A program made the position numbers and the translations under genes. Below are positions 10,047-28,120 of a stretch of DNA of 31,822 nt, piece after piece (position 1 is the first letter of the stretch; each line of letters opens with the position of its first letter). The DNA lies in contig JACVIW010000001.1 in assembly GCA_015711695.1 (NCBI GenBank), forward strand, positions 1 to 31,822. Direction: 5' to 3'. A model generated the notes under the pieces. The model saw only the letters and a program-made list of their open reading frames with translations. It was not told the DNA's origin and made no database searches. The stretch comes from Candidatus Geohydrothermomicrobium daggyaiense. GTDB lineage: Bacteria > Actinomycetota > Geothermincolia > Fen-727 > JACVIW01.

Positions 10047-10153
10047 TCACATTAGCGTAAGGTTGAGTGTTTTATCAGACGTATCAAGATCAAAAAAGAT
10101 CAGTATCATAATCAGCCAGGCACTTCTCACGTGTCTTTAGCGGAGGTGGACAG

Positions 10154-11371
10154 TTGATAGTTGCCGTTCTTGTTCCCGACGGCGCTGCAGACCTTCCCAT
10201 TGAGGAGCTCGGCGGAAAAACGCCATTGGAAGCCGCGCAAACCCCATACATGGATGAAGTCGTCAGGCAGGGAATAACCGGAACACTTAAAACTATTCCT
10301 GATGGAATGTCGCCTGGGAGCGATGTCGCCAATATGTCTCTTTTGGGGTACGACCCGAAAAGATTTCTAACCGGACGTGGGGCGATAGAGGCTGCGAATC
10401 TCGGAATAGATATACCGGATGGCTGGACCGCGTTCAGATGTAATCTTGTCACGGTTGAGAACGATATAATGGTTGATTACAGCGCCGGGCATATCGGCCA
10501 GGATGATGCTTTGCTTTTCATAGACTTTTTAAATCAAAGAATTGCAGATGACAGGATGAGATTCTATGCGGGGACTTCCTACAGGAATATTCTTCTTATC
10601 AAAGGGTCATATGAGGCTGTTAAGTGTACTCCTCCTCACGACATCACAGGTATGCCCATAGATGAGTACCTGCCTTCGGGTGATGGTTCTGATGTTCTCA
10701 TTTCAATTATGGAGCACTCGCGCGAAATTCTTACGGAATGCAATATCAACGCGAGAAGGAAGGAGAACGGTCTTCCCCCGGTAAACATGGTATGGTTATG
10801 GGGACAGGGCAAAAAGATGGTGCTTGAGAGTTTTGAAAAAAGGTTCGGACTTACCGGGGGAATCATAAGCGCGGTGGACCTTGTCTGTGGAATCGGAAAA
10901 CTTATCGGTCTTAAGAGGGTGCATGTTCCGGGAATGACGGGGTACCTTGACACAAATTACGCCGGGAAAGGCGAAGCCGCGATTGAAGTGTTAAAAGAGC
11001 AAAATTTCGTTTATGTTCATGTCGAAGCCCCTGATGAAGCATCTCATATGGGCAGCGTAGAAGAAAAGATAAAGGCAATCGAAAGATTTGATAAACTGGT
11101 TGTTGGCAGGGTTCTTAATTTTATTGCTGACACTGCGGAAAAGTCGAGATTATTGGTTTGCCCGGATCATCCAACCTTTATCCTTACGCGAACACATGAC
11201 AGTTCCCCGGTCCCGTTCGCTTTATGCGGTTCAGGTATTCCAGAAGGGGGGTTTAACACTTTCTCTGAGAGATCAGCACAACTTTCTGGGCTGCATATCG
11301 AGGAAGGACATGAGTTGCTTCCGCTTGTGGTGGCGACAAAAGTTTTGGAAAAAGGTTTTTTTTCACGATAG
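10154..11371 (+). CDS. apgM: archaeal-type 2,3-BPG-independent phosphoglycerate mutase ApgM (subfamily also proposed as a homoserine phosphotransferase)
   Basis: PDGAAD, GKTPLE.A.TP, PGSDVAN (phospho-Ser), YDP...GRG.IEA, TPPHDI, WLWGQG, HVEAPDEASH, PDHPT, THD..PVP. TTG start with GGAGG at 10142-10146. Confidence 0.9.
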   Translation: MIVAVLVPDGAADLPIEELGGKTPLEAAQTPYMDEVVRQGITGTLKTIPDGMSPGSDVANMSLLGYDPKRFLTGRGAIEAANLGIDIPDGWTAFRCNLVTVENDIMVDYSAGHIGQDDALLFIDFLNQRIADDRMRFYAGTSYRNILLIKGSYEAVKCTPPHDITGMPIDEYLPSGDGSDVLISIMEHSREILTECNINARRKENGLPPVNMVWLWGQGKKMVLESFEKRFGLTGGIISAVDLVCGIGKLIGLKRVHVPGMTGYLDTNYAGKGEAAIEVLKEQNFVYVHVEAPDEASHMGSVEEKIKAIERFDKLVVGRVLNFIADTAEKSRLLVCPDHPTFILTRTHDSSPVPFALCGSGIPEGGFNTFSERSAQLSGLHIEEGHELLPLVVATKVLEKGFFSR

Positions 11372-11409
11372 TTTTATACGTTTCGTTGAGGAGATTGAAG
11401 ATTTTTTAA

Positions 11410-12276
11410 ATGGAGCATGCAAGCGGTAAAATCCAAGCATTTGAGAGAGGAAAAGCGAAGATGTGCGAAGCAGAAAAGATGCCGGGAAAAACAGCAATAA
11501 AACTTGCCCATATATCGGACATTCATATCGGCTCGAACCATTTCGTTTCCAATCTGTTAAACCGAGCCATAGTTGAGATAAACGAGATAAAGCCGGATAT
11601 CGTCCTTGTGTCGGGGGATATTACTAATGACGGTTTCAGGCAGCAGTATTCCGCTGCCCAGGCTTTCTTAAGAAACCTTGAGTGCGAAAGGATTTCAGTT
11701 ATACCCGGGAATCACGATTCACGAAACGTGGGATATGTTCACTTCGAGGATATGTTTGGAGATAGGAACAATGTTGTTTATCTGCCTGGAGTGACTCTCG
11801 TCGCCTTGGATTCTTCTCAGCCAGACCTTGACCAGGGAAGACTCGGGAGACAAAACTATAAGTGGATGGTTGAGAAATTAAACAAGCCTCAAGATTTCAA
11901 AATCGTTGCCCTTCACCACCACCTGTTGCCTGTTCCTGGAACCGGAAGGGAGAGGAATATAATTGAAGACGCTGGTGATTTCCTGAAACTTTGCGTTGAT
12001 GTTGGTGTGGATCTTGTGCTTGCCGGTCACAAACACGTTCCCCACGCATGGCACTTTGAGGATTTCTATGTTGTGAACGTTGGAACGGTTTCTTCCCTCC
12101 GCCTCAGAGGCTATGCGAGGCCTTGCTACAACATAGTAGAAATCGTGGACCGAGAATGTCGTGTTACAAGGAAGCACCCATTTGGCGAAAGCATGGAGAT
12201 TGTAAGGTTTCCCGTTAAACCCAAAAGTAAAAACATAAATGTTGACGCCTCCGCCGAAGAGGGGCTTTTTCCGTAA
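11410..12276 (+). CDS. calcineurin-like metallophosphoesterase (CpdA/YydB-like phosphodiesterase)
   Basis: All five motifs are intact: HISDIH, SGDIT, PGNHD, LHHH, GHKH. The true start may be ATG 11461 or 11479. Confidence 0.9.
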   Translation: MEHASGKIQAFERGKAKMCEAEKMPGKTAIKLAHISDIHIGSNHFVSNLLNRAIVEINEIKPDIVLVSGDITNDGFRQQYSAAQAFLRNLECERISVIPGNHDSRNVGYVHFEDMFGDRNNVVYLPGVTLVALDSSQPDLDQGRLGRQNYKWMVEKLNKPQDFKIVALHHHLLPVPGTGRERNIIEDAGDFLKLCVDVGVDLVLAGHKHVPHAWHFEDFYVVNVGTVSSLRLRGYARPCYNIVEIVDRECRVTRKHPFGESMEIVRFPVKPKSKNINVDASAEEGLFP

Positions 12277-12309
12277 TCTGTTGTTTGACCCTTCTGCACG
12301 GGGATATCC

Positions 12310-13671
12310 ATGGGTGATAAGAAAAAACCTGTTATTGTGCTCGTTGATGGAGAACATTACTCGGACGTGATTCTCGACACCTTTTCTTTTCTCGAGAGTG
12401 AACAGAGTTTTCTGATTTCAGCGATTGTTTTTCTTGGTGGAGCTGAGAAACTTGAGGATCTTAAGACAATAAACTATAAGAACATTCCTATCTATACGGG
12501 CAAAACGCCTTTCGAGGCTGTTTCTGTCGCTATTTCAAATCATGATATCGAGATGGTAATCGACCTTTCAGATGAACCTGTCCTCAGTTACCCTGAACGC
12601 TTTAGGATAGCCAGCATCGTTCTCGCTTCGGGCGTGTCCTATGCTGGTGCCGATTTCAAATTCGATGCTCCTGATTTTCCATTCCTTTTTGATAAGCCTG
12701 GTATAGGAATATGGGGTTCCGGTAAACGGGTTGGAAAGACTGCAATATCGGCATACGTATTGAGGTTTCTCATTCAAAAAGGCTTCAATCCATGCGTGCT
12801 TACCATGGGAAGAGGAGGACCCGCGGCCCCCGAGTTAATTGATAAACCTTACCAGATAGACGACGATTTCCTTATCCGGACTGCCAGAAAAGGAATACAC
12901 GCAGCAAGCGATCACTTCGAAAATGCTATGATGGGAAGGGCACGCGCGATTGGGTGCAGAAGATGCGGTGGGGGGATGGTTGGAATGCCCTATTTCTCAA
13001 ACGTTCAGGAAGGGGCGCGATTGGTCTCGCGGATTGAATGCGATGTGGTACTTTGTGAGGGAAGCGGCGCGACGATACCGCCTGTGGGCGTTGACGCGGC
13101 GCTTCTTGTTGTTTCTGCGATTCAACCGATTGAAAACGTTCTTGGATACCTTGGTCCTTGCAAGCTGTTGCTTTCAGACCTGGTTCTGGTTACAATGTGT
13201 GAGGATTTTCTTGTACCCGGCAGGAAAATTCAAAGATTGGTTGACGGGATCAAGTCCATAAATCCCGAGGCAAGAGTTCTAAAGACTGTTTTCAGACCTC
13301 GACCTCTCGGAGATATCAGGGGCAGGAAGGTATTCCTAACAAGTACGGCGCCCGATCGGGCAGTACAAATCCAGGTCAAGCATCTCGAAAAAAAGTATAA
13401 AGCCGACGTTGTAGGTTCAAGCGCAAATCTCGCTAACAGGAAAAAACTGAGGGATGAATTAAAAGACCTGCGGGGCGCGGAAGTTCTTGTGACCGAATTG
13501 AAGGCGGCTGGCGTCGATACGGTCTCGTGTATGGCAAAAGAGATGGGGATTGATCTGGTGTATATGGACAACATCCCGGTGTCTATCGAGGGGAACCTCG
13601 ACGAGGAAATTGGAAAACTCCTGTCGGTTGCCAGGGAGCGCTGCCAGAAGAGGCTGGATGGGATGAGTTAA
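12310..13671 (+). CDS. cpgS: cyclic 2,3-diphosphoglycerate synthetase
   Basis: VDGEHY, GGAEK, DLSDEPV, GSGKRVGKT, MGRGGP, HAASDHFENA, CRRCGGG, EGSG and TELKAA match the cDPGS family over 453 aa. Confidence 0.9.
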   Translation: MGDKKKPVIVLVDGEHYSDVILDTFSFLESEQSFLISAIVFLGGAEKLEDLKTINYKNIPIYTGKTPFEAVSVAISNHDIEMVIDLSDEPVLSYPERFRIASIVLASGVSYAGADFKFDAPDFPFLFDKPGIGIWGSGKRVGKTAISAYVLRFLIQKGFNPCVLTMGRGGPAAPELIDKPYQIDDDFLIRTARKGIHAASDHFENAMMGRARAIGCRRCGGGMVGMPYFSNVQEGARLVSRIECDVVLCEGSGATIPPVGVDAALLVVSAIQPIENVLGYLGPCKLLLSDLVLVTMCEDFLVPGRKIQRLVDGIKSINPEARVLKTVFRPRPLGDIRGRKVFLTSTAPDRAVQIQVKHLEKKYKADVVGSSANLANRKKLRDELKDLRGAEVLVTELKAAGVDTVSCMAKEMGIDLVYMDNIPVSIEGNLDEEIGKLLSVARERCQKRLDGMS

Positions 13672-13711
13672 ATAGTGCGGGTGTGCTGCCCCAAAAATGG
13701 AGGTCGCCTGT

Positions 13712-14662
13712 ATGGCTGAGAGGCTTCAAAAAATAATAATCACTGATGAGGAGCATCATCTACCTTATTCAAAGGGATTGATGGCTACCACTTTGATGGC
13801 TACCGGTCTTCCACCGGACAGGGCTTATCATATCGCCTCTGTGATTCATGAGACTCTTCGTGACGAGGGAAATCCAGAGGTCACGATGGAGCACGTCAGG
13901 AAAACCGCGGAGCTGATTCTTGAAAGGGAAGCTGGTGCGCGCTATGTTGAGATTTACAGAAAATGGCAGTCGCTTGCCACACTCAACCGCCCAATAATTC
14001 TCCTTATAGGTGGTGCTACGGGGGTTGGAAAATCGACGGTATCTACAATGCTTGCGAACAGACTCGGTATTATCAGACAGGTTTCTACTGATGTTATCAG
14101 GGAAGTAATGCGGGCTCTTTTTTCTCCCGATTTGATGCCTGCTCTTTACAGCTCCTCTTTTAACGCTCACGAATCAATGAGAATCCCACTTCCTCAAACA
14201 ACTGACAAGGTAATACTCGGTTTTCTGGAGCAGGCGGCGATGGTCTGGGTAGGGATAAGGGCAATTATCGAACGTGCTGCTCTGGAGAGGACAAACTTTA
14301 TCGTCGAAGGAGCCCACATAGTCCCTGGAATTATCGAGCCTTCCGCTTTCCAGGACGCTTACGTTCTGCAGATGGTTTTGGCTGTTGATGATGAAGCCCA
14401 GCACAGGAGTCATTTTGAGATCCGTGAGGTTGAGACTGAAGGCGCGAGACCTTACTACAGATACATAAAAAATCTTTCTTCCATTAGGAAGATTCAGGAG
14501 TATGTTCTTGAGCTTGCCCAAAGAGAGAATGTGCCCGTTTTTCACTGTTACAATCTTGATAACACCGTCAGCGAAATTGTGGAGTTTGTTATAAACAGTA
14601 TTTTTGGAGAGGGCACCGCAGATCAGGGCGAAGTCATTGGTTCTCAGGGTTTGAAGGCCTGA
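13712..14662 (+). CDS. pgk2: 2-phosphoglycerate kinase (ATP-cone + P-loop)
   Basis: PYSKGLMA ATP-cone start, GGATGVGKST P-loop, STDVIRE, LYSSSF, IVEGAHIVPG. ATG 13712 follows GGAGGT (13699-13704). Adjacent to cpgS. Confidence 0.88.
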   Translation: MAERLQKIIITDEEHHLPYSKGLMATTLMATGLPPDRAYHIASVIHETLRDEGNPEVTMEHVRKTAELILEREAGARYVEIYRKWQSLATLNRPIILLIGGATGVGKSTVSTMLANRLGIIRQVSTDVIREVMRALFSPDLMPALYSSSFNAHESMRIPLPQTTDKVILGFLEQAAMVWVGIRAIIERAALERTNFIVEGAHIVPGIIEPSAFQDAYVLQMVLAVDDEAQHRSHFEIREVETEGARPYYRYIKNLSSIRKIQEYVLELAQRENVPVFHCYNLDNTVSEIVEFVINSIFGEGTADQGEVIGSQGLKA

Positions 14663-14736
14663 GAGTTTTTAAATAATAGCGCTCTGGCAATTCTTCGAGC
14701 AATTCAACCGGTTTAACCCGTAAAAGGAGGTATGAA

Positions 14737-15384
14737 TTGAAGTTGTTCATTGATACTGCCAACGTTGAGCACATAAAAGAAATACACAGCTGGGGGGTCT
14801 TGGAAGGGGTAACGACAAACCCGACTCTTGCAGCAAAGGAAAACAGGAGTTACGTCGATTGTATCAAGGAAATCACTTCTTTTGTGAGGGGACCCGTAAG
14901 CGCAGAAGTCGTGTCTGAGGATGTGCAGGGAATGGTAGAAGAAGCCAGAAAGCTTGCTGCTATCGCTCCTAATATTAATGTTAAAATACCCATTTGCGTT
15001 GAGGGTCTTAAGGCAATAAAAGCGCTTTCCGATGAAAATATTAAGACGAACTGTACCCTCGTTTTCTCGGCAAATCAGGCTTTGCTCGCGGCTTCAGCCG
15101 GGGCGACATATGTTAGTCCTTTTCTCGGCAGGATTGACGACATGGGAAATGACGGTCTCCGGGTTCTTGAAGAGATCGTAGAGATATTTGAATATTACGG
15201 GATTGACACACAAATAATCGCAGCATCTTTGAGGCATCCGCAGCATGTTGTTGGGGCTGCACTTATTGGCGCGCATATTGCGACTATTCCCTATGATGTG
15301 TTCAAAGCGATGGTGAGGCATCCCTTGACCGATATCGGAATAGAACGTTTCAAAGCGGATTGGGAGAAGATAAAGAACCTTTAG
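14737..15384 (+). CDS. tal: transaldolase (TalC/FSA family)
   Basis: FIDTA, GVTTNP, VKIP Schiff-base lysine. SAEV (Glu) and SPF (Phe) indicate transaldolase rather than FSA. TTG start 6 nt after AAAGGAGG. Confidence 0.93.
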
Positions 15385-15416
15385 ATTAGATAAATATTAA
15401 GGAGGTTATACCTGCA

Positions 15417-16754
15417 ATGGACGTTGTTGACAGAAAACTTCTTGAAGACAAGCTCTTAAGTGAGCTTCAAGAAATCGGACAAGCTCTTGAGATCGAGGGT
15501 GTTAAGAAGTATCGAAAGAAAGAACTAATCGACCTGATACTCCGTGAAGTTGGCGCTCTTAATGACGAAAAGACTGCTGAGGTAGCTGTGGATGAACAGG
15601 TCGAAACAGAGGCAAAACCGGCCAAAGAAGAACCTACCGAGGGTGTAGGAAGCGGGATTCTTGACATTCTTTCCGATGGATACGGATTCTTGAGAACACA
15701 AGGCTATCTGGCGTCCGAAAAAGACATATACGTCTCAATGTCCCAGATAAGGAGGTTCCGTCTCAAGCGAGGAGATGAGGTTAAGGGGCAGGTAAGACCG
15801 CCGAAGGATTCAGAAAAGTACAGCGCGCTGCTAAGGATAGAGTCGGTAAACGGCGACGACCCGGAAGTCGCGATGCACCGGAAACAGTTCGAGATGTTGA
15901 CGCCCCTCTATCCGATGGAGCGGCTCCGGCTCGAGACGAAAAACTCCTCTATAACCGGGAGAATAATCGATCTGATTGCTCCCATAGGGAAGGGACAGCG
16001 TGGTCTAATCGTCTCACCACCAAAAGCCGGGAAGACGACAGTTTTGAAACAGATAGCCAACAGCATAACCGACAATAACCCTGAGGTTTACCTGATGGTC
16101 CTGCTGATTGATGAACGACCCGAGGAGGTAACCGACATGGAGAGGTCGGTCACGGGTGAGGTAATATCTTCCACTTTCGACCAGCCGAGCGATAACCATA
16201 TTGCTGTTGCTGAACTGGTGCTCGAAAGAGCAAAGAGACTCGTAGAGCATAACAGGGATGTTGTGATTTTGCTTGATAGCATAACGAGGCTTGCCAGGGC
16301 ATATAACTTGAGCACCCCGGCAAGCGGGCGCATCCTTTCAGGCGGAGTGGACTCTACCGCTCTTTTTCCTCCAAAGCGCTTCTTTGGAGCGGCGAGGAAT
16401 ATTGAGTTCGGTGGGAGTCTTACTATCATCGCGACCGCGCTTGTGGATACAGGAAGCAGGATGGATGAGGTCATTTTCGAGGAATTCAAAGGTACCGGCA
16501 ACATGGAAATTCACCTTGACAGGAAACTGGCAGACAAGAGGATCTTTCCGGCTATCGATATAGAAAAGTCTGGAACTAGAAAAGAGGAACTCATACTCGA
16601 TCCTGATGAAGCAACAAAGGTCTGGCGGCTCAGGCGAATCCTTCATTCACTTGACCCGAGCGCAGCGATTGAGCTCTTGATTGATGGGATCAGAAAGACA
16701 CGTAGCAACGCTGAATTCCTTGCCCAGATCAAAGACGCGCAGGGACTTAAGTAA
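15417..16754 (+). CDS. rho: transcription termination factor Rho
   Basis: [66 protein letters not shown]. Confidence 0.98.
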
Positions 16755-27223: not shown

Positions 27224-28120
27224 TCATAGTCGGACCGGTTCTATTTCAAGGTTGTTTCCCCTGACCTTCACGAGGATGTAGTGGTGATAGCCACCATTTC
27301 TCTCGGATGCGTGAAGTGGCGCTCCGGCTCCACCGGTTATGGTAATTTTGAGGTTGTTTTGCTCATACCGCCTGAATGCGTGGAAATGTCCGCAAAAAAG
27401 CTCTTTCACGCCGTTTTTCACTAGCACTGGCACAATTTCCTCGTTGCTTGCCACTGCGGACCTTTCGTCTTCTCCGGTCAAAAGCGAATAAGGGTAACCT
27501 GGCGGAACATGGCACACCGCGATATGGTGGTCGTAACGCATCTTTCTAACGCTTAAAAGGTCTTCTTCAACCCGGCTTCTCTCCTCTCGTGAAAAGCCTT
27601 TCTTCGGTGAACTGTTGTCTATTAACACGAAAAAACAATTTTTATGCGAAAAAGACTGCGAAGGCTTACCCACGTATCTTGCGAAAAGGGATTCGGCTGG
27701 CGCCTTTGAAACGTCGTGGTTACCGGGAACCGCATAGAACTTTACCCCGCCCTTTTTCATAAATGATGAAAACGTGGCGAATTCCTGTTCCGTTCCACTT
27801 CCAGTTAAATCTCCGGCTATGATCATGAAATCAACAGATTTGGCGGCCTCGACAATTTTTGAGAAAACCTCATAATTGTTTTGCGGGTCACCGCACACAA
27901 TAAAGCTCCAGGGTCTTGTATCTTCGGCGCTGCTCCGGGTGTCAATGTTTTCGGTCTCGGTTACTGCGGTTTGGGTTCTTCTACCTGTTGCGCATCCTGA
28001 AAAAATCGCGGCTGATAATAGTAGAAACAGAACCAGAAATAAAACACAGAGGATGTATACCCTTGCGATATTTTTTTTACCTAAACAAAAACTTCCATCG
28101 TGCATCTTTTGCCTGATCAA
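27224..28120 (-). CDS. exported (probably lipoprotein) calcineurin-like metallophosphoesterase
   Basis: Hydrophobic N-terminus ending AAIFSGC (lipobox-like); motifs CGDPQ, AGDLT, PGNHD, CHVP, GHFH, ITGGAG. Start uncertain. Confidence 0.85.
   Translation of the reverse strand: MIRQKMHDGSFCLGKKNIARVYILCVLFLVLFLLLSAAIFSGCATGRRTQTAVTETENIDTRSSAEDTRPWSFIVCGDPQNNYEVFSKIVEAAKSVDFMIIAGDLTGSGTEQEFATFSSFMKKGGVKFYAVPGNHDVSKAPAESLFARYVGKPSQSFSHKNCFFVLIDNSSPKKGFSREERSRVEEDLLSVRKMRYDHHIAVCHVPPGYPYSLLTGEDERSAVASNEEIVPVLVKNGVKELFCGHFHAFRRYEQNNLKITITGGAGAPLHASERNGGYHHYILVKVRGNNLEIEPVRL

Follow-up and report, generated by a model that had tools for sequence, protein, structure and literature searches.

Which gene encodes the enzyme that opens cyclic 2,3-diphosphoglycerate (cDPG)? 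An activity converting cDPG to 2,3-diphosphoglycerate (2,3-DPG) was described in Methanothermobacter thermautotrophicus as membrane-bound and inhibited by K+ and inorganic phosphate (Pi), with no gene named (Sastry et al. 1992, Biochemistry 31:2926, summarised in Roberts 2005, PMC1224877), and since 1992 this activity is all that has been known of the breakdown enzyme. The question is raised by a locus in a 31,822-nucleotide (nt) stretch of contig JACVIW010000001.1 of Candidatus Geohydrothermomicrobium daggyaiense (hereafter the window), in which an open reading frame (ORF) for a metallophosphoesterase (MPE; 11410-12276, + strand) lies directly upstream of cpgS, the cDPG synthetase gene. An earlier sequence-only reading of the window had suggested that this ORF may encode the cDPG hydrolase, an activity for which it knew of no firm gene assignment. 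The latter point agrees with the literature searched, in which we found neither a gene assigned to cDPG hydrolase nor a paper tying cDPG synthetase to a metallophosphoesterase. The MPE gene is intact, and its clade is a distinct one with both physical and phyletic ties to cpgS, whereas its substrate and the cleaved bond are what we infer. Its retention and loss with cpgS and pgk2, the 2-phosphoglycerate kinase gene, across the phylum Actinomycetota make a widespread and predicted soluble protein a strong and concrete candidate for the cDPG-breaking enzyme. We propose, with a probability of about 0.5, that it is a cDPG hydrolase forming 2,3-bisphosphoglycerate (2,3-BPG); some direct role in cDPG or 2,3-BPG metabolism is considered quite probable.

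Linkage and co-loss with cpgS

The gene order in the window is hom, thrC, an apgM-like gene, the MPE gene, cpgS, pgk2, fsa and rho. The MPE stop codon occupies 12274-12276 and the next ATG is at 12310, giving a spacer (12277-12309, + strand) of exactly 33 nt. A sequence scan of this spacer revealed a ribosome-binding site, GGGGA, and nothing resembling a terminator, and the MPE gene is likely co-transcribed with cpgS. The downstream gene (12310-13671, + strand) is a genuine cpgS, as had been assumed: it matches the Methanothermus fervidus cDPG synthetase (PDB 8ORK) with an E value of 1.5e-123 over residues 1-441 of 453. It is followed by pgk2 (13697-14662, + strand), which matches the models NF003259 (E 1.8e-86; 290 bits, cutoff 343) and NF008994 (E 1.5e-91), both under the equivalog cutoffs.

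Among 40 relatives of the same class, cpgS was found in 38 and an ortholog of the MPE, with an identity of 54-85%, in 37. In 35 of the 40 both share a contig at a distance of 18-500 nt. The order MPE-cpgS-pgk2 is kept in 36 of the 40, and contig ends account for two more. In G026 and G039 the two genes lie at facing contig ends, and in G014 a contig break interrupts the block and no MPE was detected in that assembly. Two genomes, G004 (99% complete) and G005 (96% complete), lack the MPE gene, cpgS and pgk2 altogether and keep both hom-thrC-apgM and fsa-rho. The order in G004 is thrC, apgM, a gap of 336 nt, fsa and rho, and in G005 a gene for an S49 (SppA-like) peptidase (L062:6597-7646) occupies the site of the missing trio. 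Because the trio is present in other members of the genus of G005, the two losses are probably separate events, each removing precisely the MPE gene, cpgS and pgk2.

The linkage extends beyond the class. A scan of cpgS loci with one genome per species yielded 448 loci, 80 of which were retained for inspection. Of the 30 actinobacterial loci extending upstream of cpgS, all but one carry the MPE gene directly upstream, with Aquicultor, Subteraquimicrobiales and Coriobacteriaceae EMTCatB1 among the carriers. The exception is DeMMO3_18 (G267 in the phylum sample described below), where the interval between apgM and cpgS (L104:6640-10001) holds a gene resembling glycogen-debranching enzymes and mannosylglycerate hydrolases, followed by an S49 peptidase gene adjoining cpgS. 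At three loci (L073, L081 and L128) apgM and the MPE gene lie about 3.5 kb apart with other genes between them, and the MPE gene still adjoins cpgS. The trio MPE-cpgS-pgk2 occurs in fourteen further families of the phylum sample, about 20 sampled families overall, and stands in this order in f9, f12, f17, f21, f29, f31, f33, f46, f54 and f64. In f20 and f61 the trio is present without the hom/thrC/rho frame, in f63 the arrangement is cpgS(+)-MPE(-)-pgk2(+), and a metagenome contig shows the order folP-like gene, MPE, SnoaL_2, cpgS. The linkage thus outlasts relocation and inversion, which would not be expected of a single frozen block passed on by descent.

A separate arrangement was seen in f18 (L200; complete genomes of about 3 Mb), where the MPE gene and cpgS are adjacent near rho. 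No pgk2 was found between the two by tblastn, and several f18 genomes carry extra MPE copies resembling the cpgS-linked clade elsewhere (L189, L190).

Co-occurrence and clades of the MPE subfamily

Subfamily membership in the phylum sample was set at E<=1e-40. Among its 251 genomes the subfamily is present in 148 and cpgS in 148, with both in 146 and neither in 101; these relatives are not independent, and most of the genomes with neither gene may trace to a single ancient loss. Four of the genomes counted are unpublished (G250, G294 and G361 of f8 and G332 of f42), each with both genes; leaving them out lowers the count with both genes to 142 and does not alter the outcome. The families f12 and f17 each contribute one negative genome of unchecked completeness. 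Four genomes are discordant, and only one of them, G267, is a real discordance, the other three being assembly artefacts. In G431, which has cpgS without the MPE, cpgS lies 61 nt from the contig end. Two apparent cases of an MPE without cpgS were discarded: in G359 rho is missing too and the whole block is unassembled, and G378 is a 75%-complete assembly with rho and pgk2 frameshifted. Among the 103 sampled genomes negative for cpgS, no subfamily member was found at the threshold apart from these two faulty assemblies.

A second sample comprised 201 Methanobacteria genomes of unknown completeness. Here 176 contain both genes, 8 neither, 9 cpgS only and 8 the MPE only, so that an MPE homolog accompanies cpgS in 176 of 185 genomes, and 8 genomes with neither gene were observed against 1.35 expected under independence. 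The 185 genomes with cpgS include Methanobrevibacter and Methanobacterium metagenome-assembled genomes (MAGs) from goat, water-buffalo and rumen. This distribution conflicts with the literature, where cDPG is said to occur only in hyperthermophilic methanogens (PMC10690619).

In maximum-likelihood trees every MPE adjacent to cpgS, including that of the window, falls into one clade (SH-aLRT 97 with 58 rows; 98 with 29 rows). This linked clade is separate from an unlinked sister clade of paralogs and from two clades of Methanobacteria. Some Geothermincolia have a second, unlinked copy in the sister clade, located beside a flavin amine oxidase gene and a B12-radical-SAM gene. Methanogen clade A occurs in a conserved cluster (L164:2585-7964, L162, L160) with genes for an archaeosine tRNA-guanine transglycosylase, NAC, an NYN RNase and a 402-amino-acid (aa) protein, which suggests an RNA-related role unconnected to cDPG. 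In methanogen clade B, seen in methanogens known to produce cDPG (L163:4982-7450 of Methanothermobacter G056; L161:3416-5774 of M. fervidus G063), the MPE gene is followed by a gene for a polytopic membrane protein of about 207 aa with 4-5 hydrophobic segments and then by one for a PhoU-domain/HTH regulator. This neighbourhood fits the description of the cDPG hydrolase activity as membrane-bound and Pi-inhibited. Clade B was rejected as an MPE that tracks cpgS, being present in 83 of the 201 Methanobacteria and in 82 of the 185 with cpgS. The outgroup to all four clades consists of tandem-MPE proteins of about 500 aa (P0125-P0191, about 25 clusters; L195:8001-9500). Their context looks archaeal, with thermosome, Nre, PhoU_div and geranylgeranyl reductase, and contains no cpgS among the called neighbours.

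The single clade, the trio in varied contexts, its deletion as a unit and the co-occurrence together support a dedicated role in cDPG metabolism and disfavour a generic cyclic-nucleotide phosphodiesterase.

Predicted active site, proposed reaction and alternatives

The MPE ORF encodes 288 aa without an internal stop. It matches the Pfam family Metallophos (PF00149) with an E value of 1.2e-19 and 71.9 bits, exceeding the gathering threshold of 21.5, over profile positions 2-191 of 191. The sequence-only reading had described an intact binuclear metallophosphoesterase without a signal peptide, and both parts hold. All five metal-ligand motifs, DxH, GD, GNH[DE], H and GHxH, are at the places it gave and are invariant in the subfamily alignment. 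Motif I (11518-11526) is D37-I-H39 and provides metal ligands; motif II (11614-11619) is G69-D70 with the bridging aspartate; motif III is GNHD 100-103 within the signature GNHDSRNVG (11707-11733), which includes R105; motif IV is H169-H-H171, followed by the loop LLPVPGTGRER with R180 and R182 (11914-11955 together); and motif V (12025-12042) is G206-H-K-H209-V-P, all on the + strand. No membrane segment or signal peptide was found by the hydropathy scan, in which no 19-residue window reaches a Kyte-Doolittle value of 1.6 and the N-terminus is hydrophilic, and the protein is predicted to be soluble. The AlphaFold model (pLDDT 92.7, pTM 0.90) shows a class-III-phosphodiesterase/GpdQ-like fold, and the architecture is that of one catalytic domain with no sensor or regulatory domain. 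The start codon is ambiguous. Homologs begin to align at residues 24-31 and most are 261-271 aa long, and an ATG at 11461 (M18, with GAGG 10 nt upstream) or at 11479 (M24) appears as likely as that at 11410 to be the true start.

Seven basic residues are conserved in the subfamily, R105, R147, R180, R182, K208, R231 and R233. Three of them, R147, R180 and R182, align with non-basic residues in GpdQ and Rv0805. R180 and R182 sit in the GTGRER loop, ten residues past the HHH ligand motif, and residue alignments show that the LLPVPGTGRER loop is subfamily-specific, without a counterpart in GpdQ or Rv0805. Both the linked and the sister clade retain R147. In an alignment of 117 sequences S104 of the signature marks the linked clade alone; the next four residues, R105, N106, V107 and G108, are shared subfamily-wide. 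As judged from the alignments, the conserved basic residues fit a small polyanionic substrate better than a nucleotide. A substrate signal specific to the active site of the linked clade was sought and rejected: the arginine set is subfamily-wide and the differences from the sister clade (H34, S42, E56, F76, Q78, S104, P174, E217, C239, Y240, R254 and P257) are modest.

Each phosphorus atom of cDPG carries one ester bond, one anhydride bond and one negative charge, and thus resembles that of a phosphodiester. Diesterase-type metallophosphoesterases attack diester-like phosphorus by a metal-bridged hydroxide. With the hydrolysis of the anhydride exergonic by about 16 kJ/mol (bioRxiv 10.1101/2025.02.21.639460), the opening of cDPG to 2,3-BPG is the most natural reaction for an MPE in this operon. 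We propose that the metal-bridging hydroxide would attack one phosphorus of the seven-membered cyclic pyrophosphate in cDPG, upon which the phosphoanhydride bond would open and 2,3-BPG be released to re-enter glycolysis or gluconeogenesis. Pgk2 (2-phosphoglycerate to 2,3-BPG), CpgS (2,3-BPG to cDPG) and the MPE would then form a build-and-break module, which may serve a phosphate, carbon or osmolyte store. If so, every step of the cDPG cycle would have its gene, and genomes and metagenomes could be screened for cDPG turnover by means of the MPE. The argument that cDPG is produced and used by many bacteria would gain strength, and cDPG would be no mere oddity of hyperthermophilic methanogens. 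The production of cDPG as an extremolyte (bioRxiv 10.1101/2025.02.21.639460) would also be concerned, as a contaminating or co-expressed hydrolase would cut yields. It is a tentative proposal, which could well be right, that the MPE clade is the long-orphan cDPG hydrolase and that many mesophilic Actinomycetota, marine ones included, keep cDPG as a dynamically turned-over store of phosphate, carbon or energy.

Several observations weigh against the assignment as cDPG hydrolase. The sequence-only reading had named phylogenetic profiling against cpgS as a check on its proposal; the expected co-occurrence stands strongly in Actinomycetota and does not hold universally, as genes for cDPG synthesis also occur without the window-type MPE. 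In G267 (95% complete) cpgS-pgk2 is present and the subfamily absent, the best match being 5e-7. Three Bacillota, one Omnitrophota and three unclassified bacterial MAGs likewise carry cpgS without the subfamily (best match about 1e-8); at three of these loci cpgS lies beside a diverged apgM, and two have pgk2 upstream. A more distant member of the MPE family was found in a bacterium without cpgS. All 17 genomes of f8 keep cpgS-pgk2 with only a sister-clade MPE copy, located beside plsC/gpsA. The methanogen homologs belong to other clades with unrelated neighbours, and in about 50 Methanobacteriaceae loci (L084-L143) neither an MPE gene nor pgk2 was found within 10 kb of cpgS. The hom-thrC...rho block is very stable, so most of the adjacency may share one ancestral arrangement in genomes that are not independent. 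At the level of the protein, the conserved arginines are common to the sister and methanogen clades and are no mark of the linked clade. The described hydrolase is membrane-bound (PMC1224877), whereas the window MPE has no hydrophobic segment, a difference in the predicted protein that counts against identity with the M. thermautotrophicus enzyme and says nothing against a soluble enzyme with the same reaction. In addition, a separate hydrolase is not strictly needed, because the cDPG synthetase of M. fervidus is reversible (PMC1224877). The genomic evidence does not separate cDPG from 2,3-BPG or another phosphorylated substrate.

This last point bears directly on the possibility that the MPE acts at another step of the cDPG pathway, either as a 2,3-BPG phosphatase (to 2- or 3-phosphoglycerate and Pi) while cDPG synthetase runs backward, or as a hydrolase that proofreads, removing a side product of the two kinase-like enzymes. 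Linkage, co-loss and co-occurrence suit such a role equally well, a basic pocket would take 2,3-BPG as well as cDPG, and a reversible synthetase like that of M. fervidus would leave 2,3-BPG for disposal. The metallophosphoesterases also include phosphomonoesterases, and purple acid phosphatases are among the fold matches of the window MPE. However, its nearest relatives in sequence and fold are the diesterases GpdQ, Rv0805 and CpdA, not monoesterases, and its GNHD/GHxH motif set is of the class-III phosphodiesterase type, for which the dianionic monoesters of 2,3-BPG are poorer substrates. Dephosphorylation of 2,3-BPG thus matches the enzyme class worse than hydrolysis of cDPG does, and we regard a role at another step as unlikely, though a serious contender.

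The same class-III fold and motifs could instead mark a common phosphodiesterase of the CpdA/Icc/Rv0805/GpdQ kind, acting on cyclic nucleotides or on phosphodiesters in general and caught beside cpgS in a stable ancestral block. Orthologs are indeed labelled 'CpdA' or 'Icc' by JGI, the hom-thrC...fsa-rho frame is itself conserved phylum-wide, and the position of the sister paralog beside plsC/gpsA suits a glycerophosphodiesterase ancestry. Yet the window MPE scores 44.1 bits with the CpdA equivalog model NF008359, not reaching the cutoff of 225, and is only about 20% identical to any characterised member. A passenger of the block is also hard to reconcile with the deletion of the MPE gene together with cpgS and pgk2 from a frame left in place, with its staying beside cpgS outside the frame and when inverted, and with the absence of the subfamily from genomes without cpgS noted above. 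This explanation is improbable. Still less probable is a regulatory or accessory function, in which the MPE would hydrolyse a signalling nucleotide or effector controlling cDPG synthesis, or act on an unrelated co-regulated compound, for example under phosphate starvation. The PhoU-domain regulator adjoining the clade B homolog of methanogens could be read in this way, as could the fact that in f8 and the methanogens the family is tied to cpgS by phyletic pattern and not by adjacency. The single catalytic domain, lacking any sensor or regulatory part, and the tight operon position among metabolic genes are more typical of a pathway enzyme. Hydrolysis of cDPG is the reading that we prefer, and the window MPE is an unexceptional representative of a known superfamily, with a substrate that is probably new.

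Genomic setting and comparison with known enzymes

The gene upstream of the MPE gene (10154-11371, + strand) belongs to the ApgM family, which covers the cofactor-independent phosphoglycerate mutase type and the 'proposed homoserine kinase' of TIGR02535. It belongs to the hom-thrC block and lies outside the MPE-cpgS-pgk2 trio, since it is kept in G004 and G005, which lost the trio, and is replaced in f8 by a GHMP-type thrB. This canonical GHMP-type homoserine kinase of f8 (L182:4428-5339) lies between thrC and the cDPG genes, in exactly the slot that the ApgM-like gene fills in the window and most relatives, and supports the idea that the ApgM-like protein replaces ThrB. The pgk2-cpgS-apgM clusters of Omnitrophota and unclassified bacterial MAGs (L103, L117, L140) encode a diverged ApgM (31-36% identity), which is probably a real mutase feeding the cDPG pathway. 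The downstream flank (14737-16754, + strand) is part of the conserved frame and comprises a fructose-6-phosphate aldolase/transaldolase gene (14737-15384) and rho (15417-16754). The presence of rho indicates that the host is a bacterium. The source genome is a Geothermincolia-like Actinomycetota MAG of 2.1 Mb with 87% completeness, and its named relatives are MAGs of Candidatus Geothermincolia and Anoxymicrobiaceae. Sequencing runs containing positions 10100-14700 of the window are DNA only and come from one marine metagenome study. A second, unrelated ORF with a Metallophos domain lies at 27224-28120 on the - strand of the window (298 aa, Pfam E 2.5e-15) and is 23% identical to the MPE.

Profile searches with the MPE matched GpdQ (2.2e-20) and Rv0805 (1.4e-18), and the same two proteins were the top Foldseek matches (E about 1e-17, TM about 0.7); among Swiss-Prot entries the fold search returned those of the CpdA type, with ADPRibase-Mn further down. 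The top NCBIfam match, an anti-phage phosphoesterase, scored 70 bits where the cutoff is 420 and was rejected. Neither a solved structure nor a Swiss-Prot entry was found inside the MPE subfamily, the closest being GpdQ, Rv0805 and CpdA. Enterobacter aerogenes GpdQ, Mycobacterium tuberculosis Rv0805 and Escherichia coli CpdA (PDB 3D03, 2HY1, 3IB7) share the fold and the five metal motifs with the window MPE. In contrast to them, the window MPE, at 17-21% identity, has its own GTGRER loop, the conserved R147 and the phyletic tie to cpgS.

The MPE superfamily also contains enzymes that cleave P-O-P bonds whose phosphorus atoms each bear one ester, namely LpxH, LpxG and ADPRibase-Mn. LpxG is among the weak NCBIfam matches of the window MPE and ADPRibase-Mn, as mentioned, among its fold matches. 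These enzymes are distant from the window MPE and act on nucleotide or lipid substrates, and the likeness is mechanistic only. A hydrolase gene in the operon of the synthetase for the same storage compound is known from ppk-ppx and cphA-cphB; their enzymes are unrelated to those of the window trio, and the analogy lies in the operon logic alone. The cDPG hydrolase of M. thermautotrophicus catalyses the very reaction, cDPG to 2,3-DPG, that we propose for the window MPE, and M. fervidus and a Methanothermobacter genome each encode two MPE homologs with 44-47% identity to it.

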